A DNA stretch of 63,884 bases, filler included, from Collodictyon triciliatum (taxonomy: Eukaryota), in the NCBI GenBank assembly GCA_043381765.1. It is 31 parts of 31 records of this genome, joined end to end, with 100 filler letters (N's around TTAATTAATTAA, not from the genome) between each part and the next. Parts side by side here need not be neighbours in the genome. Positions count along the whole stretch, not along the records: positions 8,283 to 10,252 come from JBHJMP010009797.1; 30 more parts are not named here. The stretch is one strand, 5' to 3'. Positions 2,072 to 62,097 of this stretch are shown here, piece by piece. The translations under genes and the position numbers were made by a program. The notes beneath the pieces are model-generated. The model was given only the letters and a program-made list of their open reading frames with translations, was not told the origin of the DNA and searched no databases. The number at the start of each line of letters is the position of its first letter. Position 1 is the first letter of the stretch.

Positions 2072-2368
2072 AAAAAAAAAAAACAAAAAAAAAAAAAAAA
2101 AAAAACACAAAAAAAACACAAAAAAAACACAAAAAAAACACATAAAAAACACATAAAAAACACATAAAAAACACATAAAAACACATAAAAAACACATAAA
2201 AAACACATAAAAAACACACAAAAAACACACAAAAAACACACAAAAAACACATAAAACACATAAAACACATAAAAACACATAAGAAACACATGCAGCACGC
2301 AATAATGACCATCCGTTCATGATATTTTTCCAGTAAAGATCCTTGGGCTTCACAGACAACAAGGTGAG

Positions 2369-4041
2369 ATGAGTCAGCGGAGTAATAAAAATGGACAGTC
2401 ATCAAAAGAATCCCTTCATCAAGTTCAGCGAGAACACAAAGAAAAAAACTTGGGAAAGGTTGAAGTTGAAAAAGAAGAATGGGCTTATTATGATGACGAC
2501 GAAGACGATTACGGCGAATTTGATGAAGAATACAATTACGGCGATGAAGGGTATTATGATGCATATAATTACGATGACGGCGAAGAGTACGAGGATGACG
2601 AATATGGAGGAGGAGGAGGTTGGTCTCATATAGAACCTGCATTTGAAGATCGGCTGGGTGACCCAGCGGAAGAAGGACGGTCATACTTTATGGATGAATC
2701 CGATATCGTGGAATGGTGGGATGGGAGTGAGTCAGAAAACGAGGGCGACAGTGGGGAAAACAGCAGCAACCAAACGCAGATTCCAGAAGAACTGAGACAA
2801 GAAGGGTCTCGGTGGGCTGAGGCAATCGAGTCCGGGCGTCGGGAATTAGGTCACAACACTTTCTGTGCTCTTCCAAAGAAAATATGGATTTGCCTTGTCG
2901 AAGGAAACTTCCTGACACATTCCAAAAATGCGATCAAAACAAGGAACAAAAAGCTTCCAGAGATGATTTGGTCAAACTTACGCGAGCATGTAGAGAGTAC
3001 CGAAGAAAACGAGCCAAACTTTGATAAAGGGGACGACGAGTGGTATCGCTGGAGAATTCCTCGCAACGTGAATGAATGGGAATTCTCATATGTAGGGAAA
3101 GCATCAAGAGGACGACGTAAAGTGTATATCAAAGGACCGGACGTGTGGATTGGCTTTACGAAGAAACCCCTTGATGTTTCTGTTGACTGGATTGTACCCA
3201 ATTCGAGAGGAAAAGAGCCTGTGAGCGAGGAGGAAAAGATACAATCCATTCGGTTCGTTCGGTGCAACGATACCATAGTTGAAAACGTCTCAAATCAAAT
3301 GTACGGAGCACATGACATTAGAGTCTTTTGGTGCCTTTGGTCTGGAGGGAATGCTCTTCACAAGATCAAATTCAGTGCGTGTCTGGAAGAGTTGAATCTG
3401 AACGGGGCAGGGGTTTCATATTTACCAGAGTCGATTGCTTTGCTAACCAATCTTCGGTACGTATCATTGCAAGTAAACAATATATCTGTCCTGCCAGAAT
3501 CGATTGGAAATTGGTCCAAGCTGGAGTTTTTTGATTTGTCTCTCAACACCGGCATGATATTCATAGAGGACGGCGCCCTGCCCATCTTTAAGCTTTCTGT
3601 CCGCAGGGGCATCTCGTCGCTTCCGGCTTCATTCTCCAAGCTCACCAAACTGCGAGACCTGCGACTCAACGCGGTGCCTTCTCTGTTTTTGGAAAGTGAG
3701 ACGGCTAGCTCAGGTGGTAAATTGCTTGTTTCACAACAAAAGATGGAGAAACTGGGGGAAATGCTTGGACACCTGACAAAGCTTCGCCGCCTGGATGTCT
3801 CTCGAAACCGTTTGGGTGGACTGCCGCCATCGTGGAGCCACTTCACGTCCATCACAGAGGTCCACTTTGGGGACAACTCGATCTTCCCCGAAAACAGCTC
3901 CATCCCCACACCCTCGCTCCATGTCACGGAGGTGGCGAATCATTACGACCAATACTCTGCCCTCTTCAACGTAATGACCCAGCTGCCGCCGGCGATGCTG
4001 TCCTGGACAAACATCACCCTCCTGAACCTAGACGAGGTTGG
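2369..4041 (+). CDS. Leucine-rich repeat protein with acidic N-terminus, 3' truncated
   Basis: About 557-codon ORF with LxxLxLxxN motifs (LEELNLNG, LRYVSLQVNNISVLPESIGN, LRRLDVSRNRLGGLP). Confidence 0.9.
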
Positions 4042-4141
4042 NNNNNNNNNNNNNNNNNNNNNNNNNNNNNNNNNNNNNNNNNNNNTTAATTAATTAANNN
4101 NNNNNNNNNNNNNNNNNNNNNNNNNNNNNNNNNNNNNNNNN

Positions 4142-5207
4142 GCATTAGAGAGCGGTGATTTGGAAGGACTTGCGGGGTTCGTGCTTGTCTCCAGCTCGCG
4201 GTGAGCGGGGTGTGGGTGATGCCCAGTGTTTCTCCCCACCGTTGATGTTTTGACTTTTTGTAGGGTGTCGGCGGCGATATTTTGTATCGAAAGAATTTGG
4301 AGTAGGCCATAGCCATCGAAAACTGCATAGACTGCGCACCGTTAAACGAGCTTTCGTTCTTGAGGCGGAAAAAGAATGGCGATGGGATGTCCTATGAGAT
4401 TGGTCTGCGTCAGCACCATTTTCCTTTGTTATTCAGGACGGCTGTGGTTGGCTGTGCATCTTGTGTGCGGAATGCGGTGGAGCCTGGCGTTGTGATGTAT
4501 GAGCCATCTTCTTTGAGTGAGATTTCTCTGGTGGTGGCCGCGTTGCCTTCATGAATCTGTTTGATGATGCAGAGGCCTTTCTAGTTATCCCAGCATATTT
4601 GTCCTGCTGCTAGTGGCTCGTTCAGGGGTATTGTCATATCGCAGTGAGTATACAGAATCTTCCAACGCGAGAGCAAAGGCTCGGGTGTGTTTGGAGGTGG
4701 TCGTGGGATTGTTATTTGTTGCAACTGTGTTTTGAAGTGTGCACACAGTTTGGTGATGAGTTTCTACATCCCAATTTGCCAAAACCCTTTCGGCTGCATG
4801 AACATGTCCGTCCACCACTTCATGGTCAGCGATATCCATGCAGTTTTGGGTGTGATGAGTCCAACGCCTCCCTCTGCGGGTGGCTTAATCAGTGTTTTGA
4901 TTTTGTATTGCTGTCTCTTTGTTGTGATCAAGGTGCGGCATATACTCTCCAGTGTGCCGAGATGCTTTTGTGGTAGGTGAGAGCCCTTCATGTTGTGGAT
5001 GAGGGTCGATAGCATGAGTTGGTTCCATAGCCTCGCTTTTCCGATATCTGAAAGATGGAATCTTTTCCAAGAGGCGATTATGGACTTGATATTGTTGACC
5101 AGCTTGTCACACTTTTCTGAGCAGCCGCTCCCAAACATTATACCCAGGTATCTGAGTGCGTGGTTTGGGTATTTCCAGTCGAATTTTGGTTCGGTAAATA
5201 TACAGCT
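4142..5207 (-). mobile_element. L1/Tx1-like non-LTR retrotransposon ORF2, C-terminal part, degenerate
   Basis: LRYLGI, WKRFHLSDIGKARL and PPAEGGVG motifs typical of the L1-clade RT C-terminus; stops and frameshifts downstream. Confidence 0.85.
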
Positions 5208-6383: not shown

Positions 6384-7980
6384 CAAAAAAAAATAAAAAA
6401 TAAATATACTTGACAAAGCAATTAATCCGATTATGAAAAACACAATTCAAGATGAACAAAAGTCAGAGTCATTGGTTCAAGAAACTTGATTGAAGAACAT
6501 GCCAAAACAAGGGCTGTCAGAGGGAGGTATCGCAAAAGAAAATTCATTTTGCTCTTGCTCAGTGCTGCTCTCTTTATTTTCTTTTTTTGATGAATTTGTG
6601 ACTTTGCATGGTAAGTTTACAAAGTTTTGTGGCCGAACTCGATGGGAATAGATACTGTGATGGAAGAAATAATGACAGAACAGCACAGTGGATAAATAAA
6701 ACCAAGCTTATAATAGAAAATGTAACGAAATATGCTGAATCGAATAATTATGAGTCTTCGAGGATATACATAATAGAGTCAGGACTTTCTGTTTTTACAT
6801 CCGTATACGTAATTCCATATTTTCCCACAGTAATAATATTAGCATAAGTAGAAAGGAATCATAGAAATAAACTGAAATAATTGGCTGAGTCGTTTTCATG
6901 CAGAACAGTGAGTGTCGACCGGATATTTTGTTATGCTTTCCTAATACCCAAATCTATGCTTTCTAATCGTTTTTTTATTTTTATTCTTTTTCTCTTTTAT
7001 TTTCTTTTCTCTTTTCTCTTTTTCTTCTTTTTCTATTTTTCCTCTTTCTCTTTTCTCTTTTCTCTTCTTCTTTTTTCTATTTTTCTCTTTTCTCTTTTCT
7101 CTTTCTTTTTTCTTTTTTCTTTTTTCTTTTTTTCTTTTTTTCTTTTTTTCTTTTTTTCTCTTTTTCTCTTTTTCTCTTTTTCTCTTTTTCTCTTTTTCTC
7201 TTTTTCTCTTTTTCTCTTTTTCTCTTTTTCTCTTTTTCTCTTTATTTTCTTTACTTTTTCTTTTCTTTACTTTTCTTTACTTTTTCTTTTCCTTTCTCGT
7301 CTTATAAAACCAAAGCAAACAAATATAAATGTCATATTCTGACTTTACATTCTTTTCCCTCCCTATTGTTTGTCGGATGCATCGACAGGCTCCTACATAC
7401 CGAGTTCTGTCGATTTACATATGCTCGTTATGTACTCTTGGAGGAACTATGAAAGAATTGCAGCCCCAGTTATCTATTCAGAAATTAAATATCAGTCCTT
7501 AATTGAATAGTAGCTTATCTAGAGATAATAAATGCAGCAACTGCAAGTCAGTACGAAATCTCGATTCATCAGATAGAAGCAAGGACAGCTTTGGCCGAAA
7601 AACGGAATTGGCTATTGAAGTGATTGTTGTTTATGTGATTGTCACCAACTAGTTCGATGCTTTATTTGAAATACTACCCGAAGAAATGATGATATGAAAG
7701 TTTTCTTATTAAGAATGAAAAAGTGAATTTTTCAACGTTCTCTATTTTCTCTGTTGACATCAAAAAGCTTTACGAAAAAGAAAAAAAAGAGATAGAACTT
7801 TGGGTAATTAGACTATTTTGTTGTGGTGGGTTTTCTGCTTGCATTTGAGTATGATTGCGTTTTCTTTTTATTTTATGGTAGCAAGAGCGAGAGAAAGATG
7901 AAGAGAGTACAGAGTGTGGAGATGAGAAAATCGAAAGAGGTGGAGTGAGAGAAAAGACAGGAGAACAAATGCAGGTCTAT

Positions 7981-8182
<202 letters not shown>

Positions 8183-8282
8183 NNNNNNNNNNNNNNNNNN
8201 NNNNNNNNNNNNNNNNNNNNNNNNNNTTAATTAATTAANNNNNNNNNNNNNNNNNNNNNNNNNNNNNNNNNNNNNNNNNNNN

Positions 8283-8368
<86 letters not shown>

Positions 8369-9179
8369 GTAATAGTAATAAAAGGTAATAAAAAAGGCTT
8401 CGGGCTCAAGATCAGTATGAATATAATGCTCAGCATTGGTTGCTCTGATTCATTAATCCGTTTCTTTTTTCTTTTTCATTTTTCGTTTTCTTTTCGGTCT
8501 CATTTAGCCTGTAAATGGATAAACTTCATAGCAAAGGTTGTGACGAACGTGGTTTTATCCCTTCCAAGGCACAATACTTTTTATACAACGAATGTGTACC
8601 CATATATAGCGGTTTATTGCACAGACAACCATCAAATTAAATCTGGGTTGACGAAAGCAGGAGCTTTGACGAATCCAAGAAACAACCTGAGTAATATAAT
8701 GGTACGATTAGTATATATAGAAAGGTTAAATTACTTAATAATCTAATTCTATTCATATAATCAATTTATATTTTATTTTCTATTTATGTAATATTATCAC
8801 TAAAATTCAAAAAATACAAACAAAACCCTTGCGTTGGTACAGACAGAAATCACCCTATGAACCTGCCACCAAACATGCATTTCAAAAAAGCATACCATCC
8901 ACACTTGTAGCGGTTATCATGTTGCTTGAGGCCGATATGTTGACTTTCAGTCGCAATGGCTATACAGTCGTCCTTTCGAACTCGCCGAATCAGCTCTCAG
9001 CGTTATGTCTCAAATCACTTATAGAAAACTTTGTGTGTCTGTTTGCCACAAAGCGCACATTTTGAGGGTCTCGGTAGATGCCTAATTTTACATAAATTGA
9101 TTTTACACAGTTGTTTGTATTTATTAAATTGACTGATTAACTAAAGTTTTATTAAATTGAAAACTCGGTAGCTTTCTAA

Positions 9180-10252
9180 AGGAAAAAGTAAAACAAAGAC
9201 TTTCAGACGAAGAAAAGAAAACGTCTTGAGTCTGAGAAACTAAAGTCTGTAAAACCAGACAATTGAAATGTGAAAACATCTCTAAAGTCGATTGTAAAGA
9301 ATGCAGATGACTATGACAAAACCAACGATACGGTTTTATTGTGTCATAATTTGGTTACCGACACTTATCTGTTTGCAACATGTTACATATTGAAATCACA
9401 ACAGCTCCCAACAATCGATGAAATGTTAATTTTATTTTTTTGTACGCTTTAAAAACAATCGGAGTAGTTTCACAAGATAGACCCGCAAGTTTTTTAAAAA
9501 AAAACAGATATGAGAGATGACATGATGACTGTTTATCTCAATGATTTTCGATTTATTTTGTCCCGAGAAGAACGCTTTCCGTTGGTTGGATTATCTCATG
9601 TGTTACCGTACTTGGCAAAGCAAATATTAACAGCTTATCATAATAACATTAAGGAGCATTAAGGAGCATTATGTAAAGAGGTTACTGCGTTTTATAAATC
9701 AAGCAGTTCCTAAAGATGAAGAATACCACGGGAGTTTTTAAAAAGGCAGAGTTACCGAAGTTTAAAAAAAAAGCCATATTCAAGAAACTCGAAATACCAG
9801 ACAAGACAAAGAAAGGGTTATAATACATATGCATCATATCATTCCCAGCGATATTGTAAAAGGTGTCGAATATGACGTCAAAGTCAATCCAAGTAAGTAC
9901 ACTCCATGTCTGATTTACGTGAATCGTATTTTTGAGGACAGTGGAACCAAACTGTTTCAACCAATCTCTATAAGAGTCAACAATATACCATGTCATATTA
10001 CTCTAGATACTGCATGTTTGATAGGTCTACTAGTATCATCTGGAAAAAAATTATTAAAGACGAATATATCAGGATGCAAAGAGACCCTATGGGATAATTT
10101 CTTTGAAATGAAGAAGAGGGTCTTTCATCAAAGAGACTTCAATTTTAAATACATGATACAAACAGACGGCTTGGCGGTATCATTAATGTTTGAAAAGAAA
10201 GTCATTTCAAATTCGAAATTCAAATATAGTAATAAAAAAAAAAAAAACAAGA
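9180..10252 (+). pseudogene. Fanzor1-like (eukaryotic TnpB-derived RNA-guided nuclease), N-terminal part, frameshifted; RuvC beyond the contig end
   Basis: Ordered motifs VKTSLKSIV, LPYLAKQILTAYHNNIKEH, KRLLRFIN, YDVKVNP, KLFQPISIR..IPCHITLDT, LWDNFF, FKYMIQTDGLAVSLMF; intronless; 10-bp duplication at 9651-9670 breaks the frame. Confidence 0.72.
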
Positions 10253-10692
10253 NNNNNNNNNNNNNNNNNNNNNNNNNNNNNNNNNNNNNNNNNNNNTTAA
10301 TTAATTAANNNNNNNNNNNNNNNNNNNNNNNNNNNNNNNNNNNNNNNNNNNNAAAAGAAACAAGCAAAAAGAAACAAAAAAGAAACAAAAAAAGAAACAA
10401 AAAAAGAAACAAAAAAAGAAACAAAAAAAGAAACAAAAAAGAAACAAAAAAAGAAACAAAAAAAGAAACAAAAAACAAGCAAAAAAGAAACAAAAAGAAT
10501 AAACAAACAAACAAACAAACAGGGTGCTGAATAGCAAACGAGGGACTAAAATCGAGATGATAATCATGGAACATATAAAGACAGGCATTAAAGCGTTGGA
10601 AATATCCCTAAGAGAGGAAGAGTATTGCGAGGGTAGGAAGCGATAGTACTAATAAAAGAGATCAACAGAGAAAGGATAATCGCAGCCCATAC

Positions 10693-11616: not shown

Positions 11617-12538
11617 CTCACAAATATTTGCGCTTCTTGGTTTTGAGTGACTGGCTAAACGCGCGCAAGAGTGGGCGAATGGTTTTTGTTTATTTTTATT
11701 TTTGCTTTTCTTTGTATTTATATTATTATTATTATTTTTTTTTGGATTTTATTATTGCTTCTTTTTGTCCATATATGTTGTTTTGTGGGTATAATGTTGG
11801 TCAGATCGAATCACCAATTCCCAACTTTGTGAAGATCAAAGCATCCCGCTGATTTTAAGGGTTGTGAGGAAGGCAAAGCGAGGAGGACATCGTTTGGATT
11901 GTGTGGTGTTTCAGAAGGCGGGAAAGTGCTAAACAACTCAGGCCGGTTTGCTCCATGAGTTTATCTATGCAAATCTTTCAACAATTTTCATTTTCATACC
12001 TCCTCTTTTCCTATTTCCCTTTCTTTTATTTTCCTTTCTTACCTATCCTTTTCTTTCCTTTTCTTTCCTTTTCTTTCCTTTTCTTTCCTTTTCTTTCCTT
12101 TTCTTTCCTTTCCTTCCCTTTCTTTTTCTTTTCTTCCCTTTCTTTCCCTTTCCTTCCCTTTCTTTTTCTTTTCTTCCCTTTCTTTCCCTTTCCTTTCCTT
12201 TCTTTCCCTTTCCTTTCCTTTCTTTCCCTTTCCTTTCCTTTCCTTTCCTTTCCTTTCCTTTCCTTTCCTTTCCTTTCCTTTCCTTTCCTTTCCTTTCCTT
12301 TCCTTTCCTTTCCTTTCCTTTCNNNNNNNNNNNNNNNNNNNNNNNNNNNNNNNNNNNNNNNNNNNNTTAATTAATTAANNNNNNNNNNNNNNNNNNNNNN
12401 NNNNNNNNNNNNNNNNNNNNNNTTTCTTCCTTTCTTCCTTTCTTCCTTTCTTCCTTTCTTCCTTTCTTCCTTTCTTCCTTTCTTCCTTTCTTCCTTTCTT
12501 CCTTTCTTCCTTTCTTCCTTTATATTTCCTCTTGGCAG

Positions 12539-14250: not shown

Positions 14251-14492
14251 TAATGACATGACGAAATAAAGCTGTCATTTTCAGTTGTTCTTCTCTTCTC
14301 TTCTCTTCTCTTCTCTTCTCTTCTCTTCTCTTCTCTTCTCTTCTCTTCTCTTCTCTTCTCTTCTCTTCTCTTCTCTTCTCTTCTCTTCTCTNNNNNNNNN
14401 NNNNNNNNNNNNNNNNNNNNNNNNNNNNNNNNNNNTTAATTAATTAANNNNNNNNNNNNNNNNNNNNNNNNNNNNNNNNNNNNNNNNNNNNT

Positions 14493-16411
14493 AATTCCAA
14501 ATTCGTATTGTTTTGTCGCTACCTCCTGATACGATTTTAGTTCTATCTGGGCTCAAACTAACGCTATTAACCGAACTTGTGTGACCTGAAACTGTCAAAA
14601 TCAAGCTGAAATCAGGAAAATTCCACATTTTAATATATGCATCATCACTTGCAGAGAGAAATTTTGTTCCATCTGACACAATTGAAAAACCATTAATTGT
14701 AGCAACATGTTCTGAAAAAATGTGAATTATCACTCCATTTGAATAATTCCATATTCTAATTGTATTATCGCTGCTTCCAGAAATAATTTTTGAAGTATCT
14801 GGAGAAATGACAACTGTTTTGACGATTCCAGTATGTCCGCTGAATGTTCTTATCAAATCTCCATCTGATATGCTAGTAAGTTTGATTGTTTTGTCGCTAC
14901 TTCCAGAGACGACTTTCGTTCCATCTTGCGTGATGGAAATGCAATTTACTGAATCTGTATGTACTTGAATATTCTGAACTACTGTTCCGTCGTTGATATT
15001 CCATACCTTAATTATTTTATCAGCACATCCTGACACAATTTTTGAGCCATCAGGGGTCAAAGCTACACTGTTAACTATTCCGGTATGTCCGCTGAATGTT
15101 CTTATCAAAGCTCCATCTGACATGCCGGTAATTTTGATTGTTTTATCGCTACTTCCAGAGACGATTTTCGTTCCATCTTGCGTGATAGAAATGCAATTTA
15201 CTGAATCTGTGTGCACTTGAATATTTTGAACTATTCTTCCATCATCAATACCCCACACTTTGATTGTCTTGTCCACACTTCCGGAGACAATTTTTGAACT
15301 GTCAGAACTCAATATCACTGCCTGTACACCATCTGCATGCCCAGTTAATGAGCGAACTAAATCTCCATTATTCAAGTTCCAGATTCTTATGATATTGTCT
15401 GAGTGCCCAGATATGAAAATTGATCTCGATTGAGATGCGGTTATACATAAAAATGGAGAGCCTGCTAATGAATTTATAAGGTTTCCGTTTGATAAATCCC
15501 ATAACTTAACCGTCCAATCTGCACTTCCTGATGCTATCTTCAAGCCGTCAGGAGTTACAATTACTCCCAATACGTAGTTTGTATGACCCGTCACAGTGCA
15601 GATCAAAGATCCATCGAAGAGATTCCAGATTTTTATTGTTTTATCATCACTACCTGATATGATTCTTGCGCTATCTGGTGTTAAAACTACAGAACAGACA
15701 AACCCTAAATGACCTTTCAATGTGCGAATCAAAGCTCCATCAGAAAGATTCCAAATTTTGACTGTTTTATCATTACTTCCAGAAACAATTTTTGTACCAT
15801 CTGAAGAAACAGCAACACTGCGAACAGCACTAGTATGACCAGTCAATATGCGAATCAAAGCTCCATCTGAAAGATTCCATATTCTTATAGTCCAATCCCA
15901 ACTACCAGAAATAATTTTTGAACTATCAGGAGTAACAGCAACACCGCGAACAGCACCAGTATGACCAGTCAATGTGCGAATCAAAGCTCCATCTGAAAGA
16001 TTCCAGACATTTATTGTGGTATCATGGCTCCCAGAAATAATTTTTGAGCCATCAGGAGTAACAGCAACACTGCAAACAACACTAGTATGACCAGTCAATG
16101 TGCGAATCAAAGCTCCATCAGAAAGATTCCAAATTTTTATTGTGGTATCAGCGCTTCCCGACAAAACCCTCGTCCCATCAAAAGTGACAGAAACACTCCA
16201 AATCTCATTAGTATGACCAAGTAATGTACTAATCAATTTTCCATCAGAGATATTCCATATTTTGATACTTCTGTCCACACTAACACTTACAGTCTTTGAA
16301 CCATCAGGAGTAACAGCAACACCACGAACCCATTGACTATGTCCTATTCCAACAGTATAGACAGAAGTAACTTGGCCATGGCAAGAAAAAAATTGACCCA
16401 AAAAAAGGACT
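14493..16411 (-). CDS. WD40-repeat protein exon (~15 repeats, double propeller), both ends incomplete
   Basis: About 640 open codons of GH...SV.++PDG.KI+SGS.D.TI+IW repeats. Confidence 0.95.
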
Positions 16412-16619
16412 CCTATAAAATCATTTTAGCCAATAAAACCAAATTTCAGCAGAAAAAAANNNNNNNNNNNNNNNNNNNNNNNNNNNNNNNNNNNNNNNNN
16501 NNNTTAATTAATTAANNNNNNNNNNNNNNNNNNNNNNNNNNNNNNNNNNNNNNNNNNNNGACAAACAAGTTTGAATAAAGATATCCTGATATATTAAATA
16601 AGAAATAGATGCCACTCTA

Positions 16620-39410: not shown

Positions 39411-40298
39411 AGTCCTTGAAGATGAAACAACCCTCGGAGAAAATGACGAGGAGTTATCTGAGCAACCTAGTGAAGCAGCGTCCCAAACCACGCCGATGTC
39501 TCCTCCGAAATCACAGAATTGGTTTCGCCGGCTCTTCCAAAGAGAAACTGACAGTAGTGATGAAAGCGGAGCCGCACCAACAAGACCTGCCAAGGATATG
39601 GACTACATAGTGCAGGTCACATAGTTTACAAGCAATCCAGTAGCTTTTTTTCAACATGGATGGCGATTGCTTTATTACACATGAATGCATTATATTTATT
39701 TAATCCATCGACTTTGAATCGAATAAAGGATTTTTTTTTTATTGAATCCATCAAAATTACTGCCTTCTCTCTTATTTCCCTTCTCTGGGTCAAACATAAC
39801 CAAGTTATTTTCATCTATATCTTCAGTTCTCTCACTGACAAGGTACAATAATCTTTATCTGTCGACGATAGTTGGAACTAAGAATCCAACAAGCTCAAAT
39901 TGAGCAAGAAAGGATGGACGCAGAGTTATTGCAAGAGTACAACCTTTTCCACGAAAAGAAAGTTGACGACTTTAAAAAGATGCTAGACATTTACAGCAAG
40001 TGTCAGGCTAGTCACCATCGAGATGTAAGTTGCTTGAGGCTGAAAAATTTCTGCATATTCGAATAGATTGCCAGCGTAAAACATTTTGTAAACATATGCA
40101 CAGGCATTTCACATCTTTTGCACGCTTTCTTCAAGCTGCACACTAGACACTTGCCATGATTATCTTAATATCACATACTATTCACTAAATGAGGCGACAA
40201 AATCTCACGATATCACATTCTATCGTCTGGTTGAATAGGCTATGGAAGCATGGACTAAACTGCCGGCTGTTCTTGATAGAGTCAAAAAAATAGGCTAG
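39411..40298 (+). CDS. Sorting nexin BAR-domain C-terminus (Vps5/SNX-BAR-like), last three exons
   Basis: LELRIQQAQIEQERMDAELLQEYNLFHEKKVDDFKKMLDIYSKCQASHHRD|AMEAW. Confidence 0.7.
39695..39752 (+). mobile_element. Micro-insertion family A in an intron, 15-bp TSD with one mismatch, T-rich tail
   Basis: TTTATTTAATCCATC / TTTATTGAATCCATC flank GACTTTGAATCGAATAAAGGATTTTTTT. Confidence 0.7.
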
Positions 40299-43606: not shown

Positions 43607-45362
43607 TACGGTTGCCGAGCGTCCTACGTGCAAATTATCTTGCAACAGATCATTTATGGCTTAAGGCATCTGCACTCTAATAATATTGTGCACAGAGACT
43701 TGAAGCTAGACAATATCCTCATTTCCAATCAGTTTCGCATCAAGATTGCCGATTTTGGCTTTAGTAATAAGTTTCAGCCAAACGAAAAAATGAAAAACTT
43801 TTGTGGTTCTATGACCTACGCCGCTCCAGAGATCTTATCGGGAAGACCTTACGACGGGCAAGCTGCAGATGTTTGGGCTGTTGGTGTCATTTTATTTTCA
43901 CTATTGAACGCATATTTTCCTTTCGGTGATAACGACCACGAGAGTATGAGAAAAGCAATATGCAGAGGGGAATGTGCCTCGATGCGACCTACAACCAATG
44001 TTGTGCAGTCTCTTGTTATGGGCTGTCTCTTAATCAACCCAGAAGAACGAATCACGATTGACCAGATTGTGAGGCATTATTGGTTTCTTGTAGGCCCTGT
44101 GAAAGACAAACAAGTGTCTCTTAGAGCTCCTAAGGATAAAGATTATGATTTTCGAACACACCTTCTCCCGGATGATGAGCTGCTTAAGTTCAGAGATATC
44201 ATGGACGGAAGCCTAAGGTATACTTCGACGTGGAACTTCAACTTGAATGATTTAAATGTTGGATATTTTTCAAAACCGCAAAACGAATCTGACCTTGGAG
44301 ATGACAGTAGCTTTGTAATTGGCAGCTTGAAGAAACTTTGGAGAAAAACTTTTGATTCCCAGGACATTGAGGTTCGAAATGTCATATCTCCACTTTCATC
44401 CAACATCAATTCTGATGATGTACCAATGGTGTCGCATAGACCGATGAACCAACATCATGACTCACACACCCAGCAAGTATACCCAAAATCCCAAGTGTAT
44501 GAACCCCCTTCTCCTCGACCCATACCACCAGTCGAATATGACCCCCCAGCTAGGGATAAGACTGACCGTAAGAATGTTTCCGTAACCATCTCTGCCCCAG
44601 AACCCCATCACGAGACGACTCGAGTAAGAAACAAGTCGAGAGGAATCAGTTTCAGTGTAGAAGGCCGCGACCGAACCTCGAGCTTTAGAAGAAAGTCTGT
44701 AAAACCTGAAGTTGTTGATTTGCCAGATGAAGTTATCCTCGACAATGGAGTCATCGTGAAGTCCGCTCAATCTGAGGTCAAGGTCCAACGAACTCGCAGC
44801 ATTCTTCTGCGAGCGAAACCAACCCAGATATATATTCCCTTGGAGATTTGCAGCGAACTAGGCGATTCCCACTCTCATTCTGAACTGTATCCAACCCTTA
44901 TAGACAAACAAGTTGCCTCGCATTCGGAGTATAGCCCAACTGCACATGTATCTTCATCGCCATTCCCAACTGAACTTCAATACCAGTCTCAGTCCCAGTC
45001 TCAATCTCAATCTCAGCCTCAATCTCAATCCCAATCTCAGTCTCAGTCTCAGTCTCAGTCTCAGTCTCAGTCTCAATCTCAATCTCAGTCACAGTCACAG
45101 TCTCAGTCTCAGTCTCAGTCTCAATCTCAATCTCAGTCTCAGTCTCCGTCTCTGTCTCACTTTCATTCTGAATTATCTCCAAACCTGACTAACGAACTGC
45201 AACTCGCCTCGCACTCGGAGTATACCCCAACTGCACATGTATGTCCATCGGCATTCACAACTGAATCCCAATCCCAATCCCAATCCCAATCCCAATCCCA
45301 ATCCCAATCCCAATCCCAATCCCAATCCCAATCCCAATCCCAATCCCAATCTCAATCTCAAT
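43607..45362 (+). CDS. CAMK-group Ser/Thr kinase (SNF1/MARK/TSSK-like) with poly-SQ tail; both ends incomplete
   Basis: HRDLKLDN, DFGFS, FCGSMTYAAPE, DVWAVGVILF. Confidence 0.92.
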
Positions 45363-61386: not shown

Positions 61387-62097
61387 AGCATTCGCTGGCA
61401 CCACTACAGCACAGAATAAACCCATCCAAAGACATTTCACACGGACATCCTTTCAAGCGACGATTCGTTATGCGGCCTACATACCTTCTTTCCAGATTAT
61501 CTTACCCCCAACAGCCAAAGTAATTTTATTTGTCATTTCCGCATTTGAAAAACATATTTGGTATGATTAAATTTGAACTGTTACTTGCGCAGCGCGGTTT
61601 TTTTGAGGCGATCCAGAAGCACGCGCTTTTCTCTTCCCTTTCGTCCATCTATACCCTTTCCCCTCACCCTTTTTCTTCAACGGAGCATCGGGATCTGGAG
61701 AGATACGGCCTATTATTCGAACTTTAATAACTTCCCCATAGAAATGCTTAAAAAGTATAGCAGATATAAAAACAAAAAAACAAAAAAACAAAAAAACAAA
61801 AAAAACAAAAAAAACAAAAAAACAAAAAANNNNNNNNNNNNNNNNNNNNNNNNNNNNNNNNNNNNNNNNNNNNTTAATTAATTAANNNNNNNNNNNNNNN
61901 NNNNNNNNNNNNNNNNNNNNNNNNNNNNNATAATGATAATGATAATGATAATGATAATGATAATGATAATGATAATGATAATGATAATGATAATGATAAT
62001 GATAATGATAATGATAATGATAATGATAATGATAATGATAATGATAATGATAATGACAATGACAATGACAATGATAACAAAACTAGAAGGAGCATAC

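Follow-up and report, generated by a model that had tools for sequence, protein, structure and literature searches.

A probable decayed Fanzor1 REC/WED half from a multicopy repeat family, cut by a contig end in a draft assembly of Collodictyon triciliatum

Background

A contig of 1970 bp in the draft genome of Collodictyon triciliatum (assembly GCA_043381765.1) raises the question of whether this eukaryote carries Fanzor1, a family of RNA-guided nucleases, and of what condition the copy found there is in. The contig occupies positions 8283..10252 of the window, by which we mean the whole 63,884-base stretch of DNA that was analysed. A first-pass annotation, made from the sequence alone, had called the 3' part of this contig (9180-10252) a decayed Fanzor. 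The searches described here lead us to conclude that 9207-10252 (+) is very probably the N-terminal REC/WED half of a decayed Fanzor1, a member of a multicopy repeat family that the contig end has cut short.

Fanzor1-bearing transposons were described by Bao and Jurka (2013; PMC3627910), whose account gives the pattern D-X(125,275)-[TS]-[TS]-X-X-[C4 zinc finger]-X(5,50)-RD as defining for Fanzor/TnpB. Published work places the family in giant viruses and, among eukaryotes, in protists, fungi, algae and animals (PMC3627910, PMC10432273, PMC10530073). In the biochemical account of PMC10432273, Fanzor1 and an omegaRNA form a ribonucleoprotein, the omegaRNA coming from the 3' end of the element across its right inverted repeat. 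The structural descriptions (PMC10432273, PMC11423790) have a short target-adjacent motif (TAM) read by residues in REC and WED, the target unwound from a residue in the loop between WED and RuvC, and cleavage carried out at a RuvC site (D...E...D) aided by a C4 zinc-finger NUC/TNB domain.

Assignment to the Fanzor1 family

The last open piece before the contig end encodes 161 residues (P0001, 9769-10251). A phmmer search with it against PDB matches proteins of Parasitella parasitica (9cf0, E 3.9e-5), Spizellomyces punctatus (8gkh, 5.6e-3) and Guillardia theta (9cer, 0.015), and all PDB chains matched are Fanzor1. A 53-aa piece, P0003, matches the G. theta protein (9cer, E 0.019) across the AYxNNIxxH block.

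A profile performs far better than the single sequences. Profile A1 was made from the seven relatives found for P0001 in a collection of 5.8 billion proteins, in a search aimed at longer relatives. Against PDB at E<=0.01 it matches three distinct chains only, all of them Fanzor1 (E 1.1e-58, 8.2e-58 and 6.6e-53), and there are no TnpB, Cas12 or Fanzor2 chains among these matches. The alignments to the S. punctatus and P. parasitica proteins (SpuFz1 and PpFz1) reach within a few residues of their C-termini, and that to the G. theta protein (GtFz1) ends at profile position 555 of 612. In a six-frame hmmsearch of the 63.9-kb window, A1 gives independent E-values (i-E) of 2.7e-64 at 9652-10245 and 4.7e-38 at 9207-9851, with nothing better than 0.29 elsewhere in the window, a separation that places the family call far past chance.

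A fold comparison, which the first-pass annotation had proposed as a check, points the same way. The AlphaFold2 model of P0001, built from a 61-row alignment, has a mean predicted local distance difference test score of 83.9. Searched against PDB with Foldseek, the model finds only Fanzor1 among its top 7 matches (E 6.3e-4 to 8.9e-3, Foldseek probability 0.99-1.00), and the eighth match is at E 3.5. Direct PDB matches, family profile, fold, and the catalytic motifs of the relatives discussed below all bear out the earlier call of a decayed Fanzor1 REC/WED half.

Extent of the Fanzor1 piece

The motifs on which the first-pass annotation was built are all present, in the order it gave, on the + strand between 9273 and 10182: KTSLKSI (9273-9293), YLAKQ (9609-9623), AYHNNIKEH (9633-9659), RLLRFIN (9679-9699), YDVKVNP (9871-9891), KLFQP (9949-9963), IPCHITLDT (9985-10011), WDNFF (10090-10104) and MIQTDGLAVS (10153-10182), the last bearing the TDG strand. 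They lie in frame mod 0 up to 9659 and in frame mod 1 from 9670, with two brief excursions into the third frame; because the motifs are spread over two reading frames, the frame is truly broken, as had been claimed. Homology begins at 9207 and continues until the contig stops at 10252 (+). The start given earlier, 9180, is therefore moved, and the end given earlier holds, as the end of the contig and not of the gene.

Frameshift-aware alignment to P0005, an intact relative of 648 aa, is colinear over residues 2-337, with 192 of 333 positions identical (58%). The corresponding alignment to P0004, a shorter relative, covers residues 2-328 with 194 of 323 identical (60%). As judged from these alignments, the span is the REC/WED half of Fanzor1. 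At its N-terminus stands a basic stretch, KKRKR (9210..9224, +), common to P0004 and P0005, which resembles a nuclear localization signal (NLS) and may act as one; in the survey of PMC10530073, about 60% of Fanzor open reading frames (ORFs) have a predicted NLS, often N-terminal. The REC-domain part (9267..9659, +; KTSLKSI ... YLAKQILTAYHNNIKEH) contains two compensating frame shifts. It leads into a weakly conserved linker (9670..9811, +; YVKRLLRFINQ ... KKAIFKK ...) with two frame shifts of its own. In the longest open piece (9811..10251, +) REC ends and the WED part follows; the piece includes YDVKVNP, KLFQP..R..IPCHITLDT, W..FF and the TDG strand.

Within TDG, T132 is invariant in a 61-sequence alignment, and D133 and G134 are each conserved at 90% or more. 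The aspartate of TDG was considered as the RuvC-I aspartate and ruled out, since the DPG of full-length relatives lies 52-61 residues later and aligns to D383 of SpuFz1. In P0005, for example, the residue number is 312 for TDG and 364 for DPG, which supplies the first RuvC aspartate.

The contig stops at an A14 run (10233..10246, +), and the DPG of relatives would come 27 codons later. What removes the nuclease half is the end of the 1970-bp contig; no deletion is visible at the locus, and the truncation is an artefact of the concatenated draft assembly. The window consists of about 31 contigs of about 2 kb each, their length slowly descending along it, split by 30 artificial linkers (1972-2071, 4042-4141, ... 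61830-61929) of the make-up N44-TTAATTAATTAA-N44, a six-frame stop. Two such linkers, at 8183-8282 and 10253-10352, bound the Fanzor1 contig, and the DNA past either of them (left of 8283, after 10352) is unrelated and without physical linkage to it. Because windows of this assembly are concatenated contigs, no reading of gene order, or of what lies "downstream", is valid across the linkers. The first-pass statement that the catalytic half is missing from the window was right; the DNA that comes next in the window belongs to another contig.

Close relatives and solved structures

P0001 is 63% identical to P0004 (331 aa), 60% to P0005 (648 aa) and 57% to P0006 (291 aa), with E-values from 7e-48 to 4e-45. 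P0004 and P0006 are both partial; of the proteins close to the window copy, P0005 and P0013 of the same cluster are the sole intact ones. A search for close near-length relatives gave just three short proteins at E<=1e-5, none of them near-identical. The window copy has the (M)KKRKR...NVKTSLKSI N-terminus in common with P0004 and P0005 and falls in one clade with all three relatives, a grouping that receives a Shimodaira-Hasegawa-like approximate likelihood ratio (SH-aLRT) of 100 in a maximum-likelihood tree. P0005 is intact (DPG at 364, NEFRTSK-CCNC...CKEC, TRD), whereas the window copy is pseudogenised.

The full-length relatives have C-terminal halves with VGVDPGK, AYGDWS, NEFRTSK-CCNC...CKEC and TRDFNSANNI. 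The first-pass annotation had staked its call on full-length homologues having both RuvC and a zinc finger, and both are there: every one of the 5 full-length close relatives has DPG ... [TS][TS]..CxxC...CxxC...RD, as do 157 of the 160 ORFs from the metagenomic loci described below. P0005 carries the Bao and Jurka motif at residues 364-604. Written as a strict regular expression the motif is found in 60 of 132 representatives of at least 560 aa, a count that omits variants and is thus too low. Pfam PF07282 (Cas12f1-like TNB) matches P0009 at 31.6 bits (cut-off 26.3), and two more relatives, P0007 and P0008, fall below the cut-off.

P0006 deserves separate mention. Annotated as "hypothetical protein" (NCBI/JGI, on a contig of 11103 bp), it is a partial Fanzor1 whose sequence begins inside the AYHNNIKEH block and retains TDG and DPG, then ends in unrelated residues short of the zinc finger. 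It is probably one more copy, truncated or frameshifted, that was annotated as a gene.

Structures have been solved for three Fanzor1 proteins: SpuFz1 (8gkh, 9ceu-9cez), PpFz1 (9cf0-9cf3) and GtFz1 (9cer-9cet; Saito et al. 2023, PMC10432273; Xu et al. 2024, PMC11423790). The window copy has the same REC/WED block order as all three, from the N-terminal K-T-x-K to the TDG strand (K-T-x-K, AYxNNxxxH, YDV..NP, F...PLR...P.H..(D)T, TDG strand). The window piece aligns to positions 625-732 of the SpuFz1 chain, or about residues 231-338 (an offset of 394, taken from D383), and the whole window fragment to about residues 5-340. The TAM contacts named for SpuFz1 in PMC10432273 are R96, Q129, Q130 and N133 in REC, R291 in WED, and Y345. 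Most of these positions are inside the aligned range; Y345 is just beyond it, near the contig end. The full-length relatives align end to end with the solved proteins and retain both the RuvC D/E/D residues and the C4 zinc finger. Their DPG, the E of (D/N)E(F/Y)xTS, and their RD align onto D383, E541 and D606 of SpuFz1, given in PMC10432273 as metal-coordinating and catalytic (D383 together with N385).

Several differences separate the window copy from the solved proteins. Identity of the window piece to them is only about 18-23% by structural alignment, and the window copy is broken, with nothing from RuvC-I onward on its contig, on which neither an omegaRNA nor a TAM nor inverted repeats are readable. 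Partial copies are nonetheless a known state of the family, as S. punctatus has them: PMC10432273 counts 42 loci in that fungus, 19 full-length and all others partial, along with 134 "ghost" elements that have no ORF.

Lesions and decay

Can the window copy still make a working protein? Its lesions, all on the + strand, were checked base by base and by frameshift-aware alignment. The start codon is lost, ACG standing for ATG at 9207..9209 (TKKRKR, vs the MKKRKR of P0004 and P0005). Independent support comes from contigs of four metagenome runs aligned on 8400-10252 (X5 and X1 are from freshwater, X2 from soil): in one X2 contig and four X5 contigs position 9208 is T, which restores ATG, at a depth of 43.1 of 45.6. 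An in-frame TGA at 9264..9266 takes the place of an Arg in relatives (KPDN*NVKTS vs KPDYRNVKTS). A frame shift in or near a T7 run (9435-9441) is compensated by one in an A9 run (9496-9504), and another near a T5A5 run (9735-9744) is compensated near 9803-9811. Between these pairs lies a 10-bp tandem duplication at 9650..9669, TAAGGAGCAT twice over with identical units, which introduces a TAA and switches the reading frame (mod 0 before it, mod 1 after), a change that goes uncompensated to the contig end.

The case for decay is carried mainly by the ACG, the TGA and the 10-bp duplication, because these three are not errors of the homopolymer type. With no start codon, an interrupted frame and no nuclease half on the contig, the window copy is incapable of any of the activities described for intact Fanzor1. 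That it is truly dead we hold to be highly likely.

The alternative to be weighed first is that the gene is intact and possibly active, its lesions being errors of the draft assembly and the contig end its sole truncation. Of the four simple frame shifts, at least three do coincide with homopolymer runs (T7, A9, T5A5) or sit next to them, and the four form two compensating pairs; the assembly, moreover, is highly fragmented, into 2-kb contigs, and this contig breaks in its A14 run. The ACG, the TGA and the 10-bp duplication are not homopolymer errors, however, and the shift caused by the duplication stays uncompensated. The T at 9208 in other copies also speaks against an intact gene, as does the terminal branch of the window copy in the tree, which at 0.49 is 3 to 5 times longer than the 0.097-0.14 of P0004, P0005 and P0006. 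We regard an intact gene at this locus as quite improbable.

Several points nevertheless weigh against reading the locus as a decayed Fanzor1 half. The homopolymer-linked shifts could be sequencing errors, of which compensating pairs are a hallmark, and the decay possibly overstated. The long terminal branch fits relaxed constraint on the sequence and could instead mark a more distant sub-lineage, and the tree itself was a quick LG+G4 search of 87 rows and 325 N-terminal columns with a midpoint root. The template modelling (TM) scores of the Foldseek matches, 0.35-0.42 when normalised by the query, and root-mean-square deviations of 13-16 A make the fold weak support when taken alone. Different placement of the two sub-domains of the fragment may account for the low scores, and we count the modelled fold as supportive only. 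A local copy of Pfam returned no family for any piece of the window copy; PF26935, a domain precomputed for 7 of 7 homologues, was not returned by that copy. Finally, this contig holds neither the catalytic half, with RuvC and the C4 zinc finger, nor an omegaRNA or the ends of the element.

The repeat family and its host

The locus is probably one copy of a repeat family and not a single gene. Of X5, 119 contigs align to 8400-10252, with 6 at 99% identity or more, 13 at 95-99%, 40 at 90-95% and 60 below 90%. X5 contigs that are 85-99% alike cover 30 of 30 bins of this region, the non-coding 8508-9206 included. Because they cover both, the ORF and at least about 700 bp upstream of it form one repeated unit. 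Near-identical contigs occur in the other runs, with a 259-nt stretch in X1 that shows zero differences to the window and two 151-nt stretches in X2 that show 0 and 1; the organism or a very close relative therefore occurs in freshwater and in soil. The shares of sampled words in the metagenome runs are small (0.06-0.13), and depth is unusable as copy number because all the metagenome records are contigs. The decayed copy is very probably a member of a multicopy repeat family in a free-living eukaryote.

The non-coding stretch of the repeated unit upstream of the ORF (8508..9206, +) probably represents the carrier element's 5' part or left arm. An RNA-fold signal was sought on both strands of 8820-9090 and is absent (z 0.71 and 0.15). 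Rfam and tRNA searches of 8400-9206 gave no match, a 107-aa upstream ORF (8742-9065) has no Pfam match, and comparison of the upstream 800 bp or so with 160 Fanzor1 loci by tblastx and blastn gave nothing better than E 0.22. On these nulls we rejected 8400-9206 as an RNA gene, as a transposase remnant and as an element arm shared with those loci. The contig has some inverted repeats, but these are short and AT-rich, none of them nested, and were set aside as chance rather than taken for element ends; no left boundary of the element is fixed on this contig. Searches of the 63.9-kb window by tblastn with six homologues, and with the profile, found neither a second Fanzor1 copy nor a C-terminal half. 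The tblastn matches at 18.6-18.9 kb (E 0.23 to 9.5) were rejected as lysine-rich low complexity, with a profile i-E of 6.

By analogy with described Fanzor1 elements, the missing half would once have carried RuvC and the zinc finger, the omegaRNA would have lain 3' of that half, and the carrier element would have been mobile. The window copy itself is very probably a non-functional relic of its family.

The wider lineage is large. At E<=1e-3 the profile finds 6992 representatives of 50%-identity clusters among 1.84 billion entries, and 1372 of them still score at E<=1e-30. In JGI metagenome contigs there are 307 confirmed stretches and in IMG/VR 215; the best 80 of each were kept and these 160 loci fetched. 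All 160 hold an intact matching ORF (median 624 aa), which makes intact Fanzor1 genes of the broad lineage plentiful. Many of the fetched loci are on long contigs, up to 287 kb, and 31 of the best 80 IMG/VR loci have GVMAG in the contig name, a label that we take to stand for giant-virus metagenome-assembled genomes. These giant-virus and IMG/VR loci belong to the same family profile as the window copy, but their ORFs are intact, and the fetched loci are only about 37-44% identical to P0005. As a separate observation, 151 of the 160 fetched loci group together at 65% identity or more, one lineage that is remarkably uniform across many aquatic giant-virus-like contigs. As to the suggestion in the first-pass annotation that intact copies may exist, it is borne out for relatives about 60% identical to the window copy (P0005), and nothing follows from them for this genome.

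The abundance of viral relatives gives some room to the idea that the contig is not protist nuclear DNA and came with its Fanzor1 from a giant virus or from some organism sequenced along with the protist. Viral contigs contain many relatives about 38-44% identical to P0005 (the 215 IMG/VR stretches), a locus from a viral contig (L081) sits in neighbouring clades of the tree, and the contig, only 1970 bp long, is without a host gene. Several lesions together with many copies diverged to 85-95% identity are, on the other hand, a better fit to decaying repeats of a cellular genome than to a virus genome. In addition, the contig opens with an (ATT)n microsatellite like that of another contig of the window (39277 onward), and its GC content of 32% around the Fanzor1 piece is like that of neighbouring contigs, within a range of 30-47% over the window. 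All of these counter-arguments are weak, but we judge a viral or contaminant origin very improbable. A chance likeness of motifs, or a prokaryotic TnpB, is next to impossible, for although no Pfam family is found for the window pieces, the i-E values of 2.7e-64 and 4.7e-38 against 0.29 or worse elsewhere, the restriction of the profile's PDB matches at E<=0.01 to Fanzor1, and an N-terminal KKRKR with a large REC domain typical of Fanzor1 all oppose it.

If the locus is a Fanzor1 relic of a cellular repeat family, more may be imagined of its history. A free-living freshwater or soil eukaryote may harbour a recently active multicopy Fanzor1 family with intact omegaRNA-guided members, whose adjacency to giant-virus clades would record transfer between virus and protist, in either direction, and of which the dead copy would be a fossil. 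This picture is speculative and we think it rather doubtful.

The window copy is a new, unannotated, dead member of a well-described large family. It matters little beyond annotation, as the breadth of Fanzor1 and its decayed copies are already documented. Its contribution is to show a Fanzor1 repeat family in this poorly assembled eukaryote, and to show that contig ends will cut gene models on such short contigs. Should intact members be recovered, they would constitute one more lineage of RNA-guided nucleases, about 60% identical to the nearest intact relative and about 20% to the solved proteins.

Other features of the window

A 147-aa open frame at 4764-5207 (-) has no Pfam match at E<=0.001. 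Its likeness to the tail of a retroelement ORF is an impression by eye, backed by no search. Elsewhere the window carries a leucine-rich repeat (LRR) protein (2309-4041, +), a ubiquitin fragment (7984-8181, -), an ankyrin-repeat protein (29080-29898, +), a GTPase-like protein (33263-34639, +), and a protein kinase with a long (SQ)n tract after it (43607-45001, +). At 14492-16425 (-) a single open frame fills its contig from end to end with at least 13 WD40 repeats (Pfam WD40, E 9.6e-137) and is cut by both contig ends. The ubiquitin, kinase, GTPase-like, WD40, LRR and ankyrin genes, each on a contig other than that of the Fanzor1 piece, are ordinary eukaryotic ones and support a eukaryotic source for the assembly. 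If the Fanzor1 contig comes from the same organism, such a host and the NLS-like KKRKR speak for a Fanzor as opposed to a prokaryotic TnpB.

Microsatellites and low-complexity repeats rich in purines or pyrimidines stand at the ends of many contigs or fill them. They include (ATT)n, (AAGAAACAAAA)n and GAAA-rich tracts, with repeat-rich stretches at 8283-8380, 39277-39430, 6900-7300, 10353-10500, 12000-12520, 26600-26790 and 35150-35860. Such repeats probably explain the fragmentation of the assembly.

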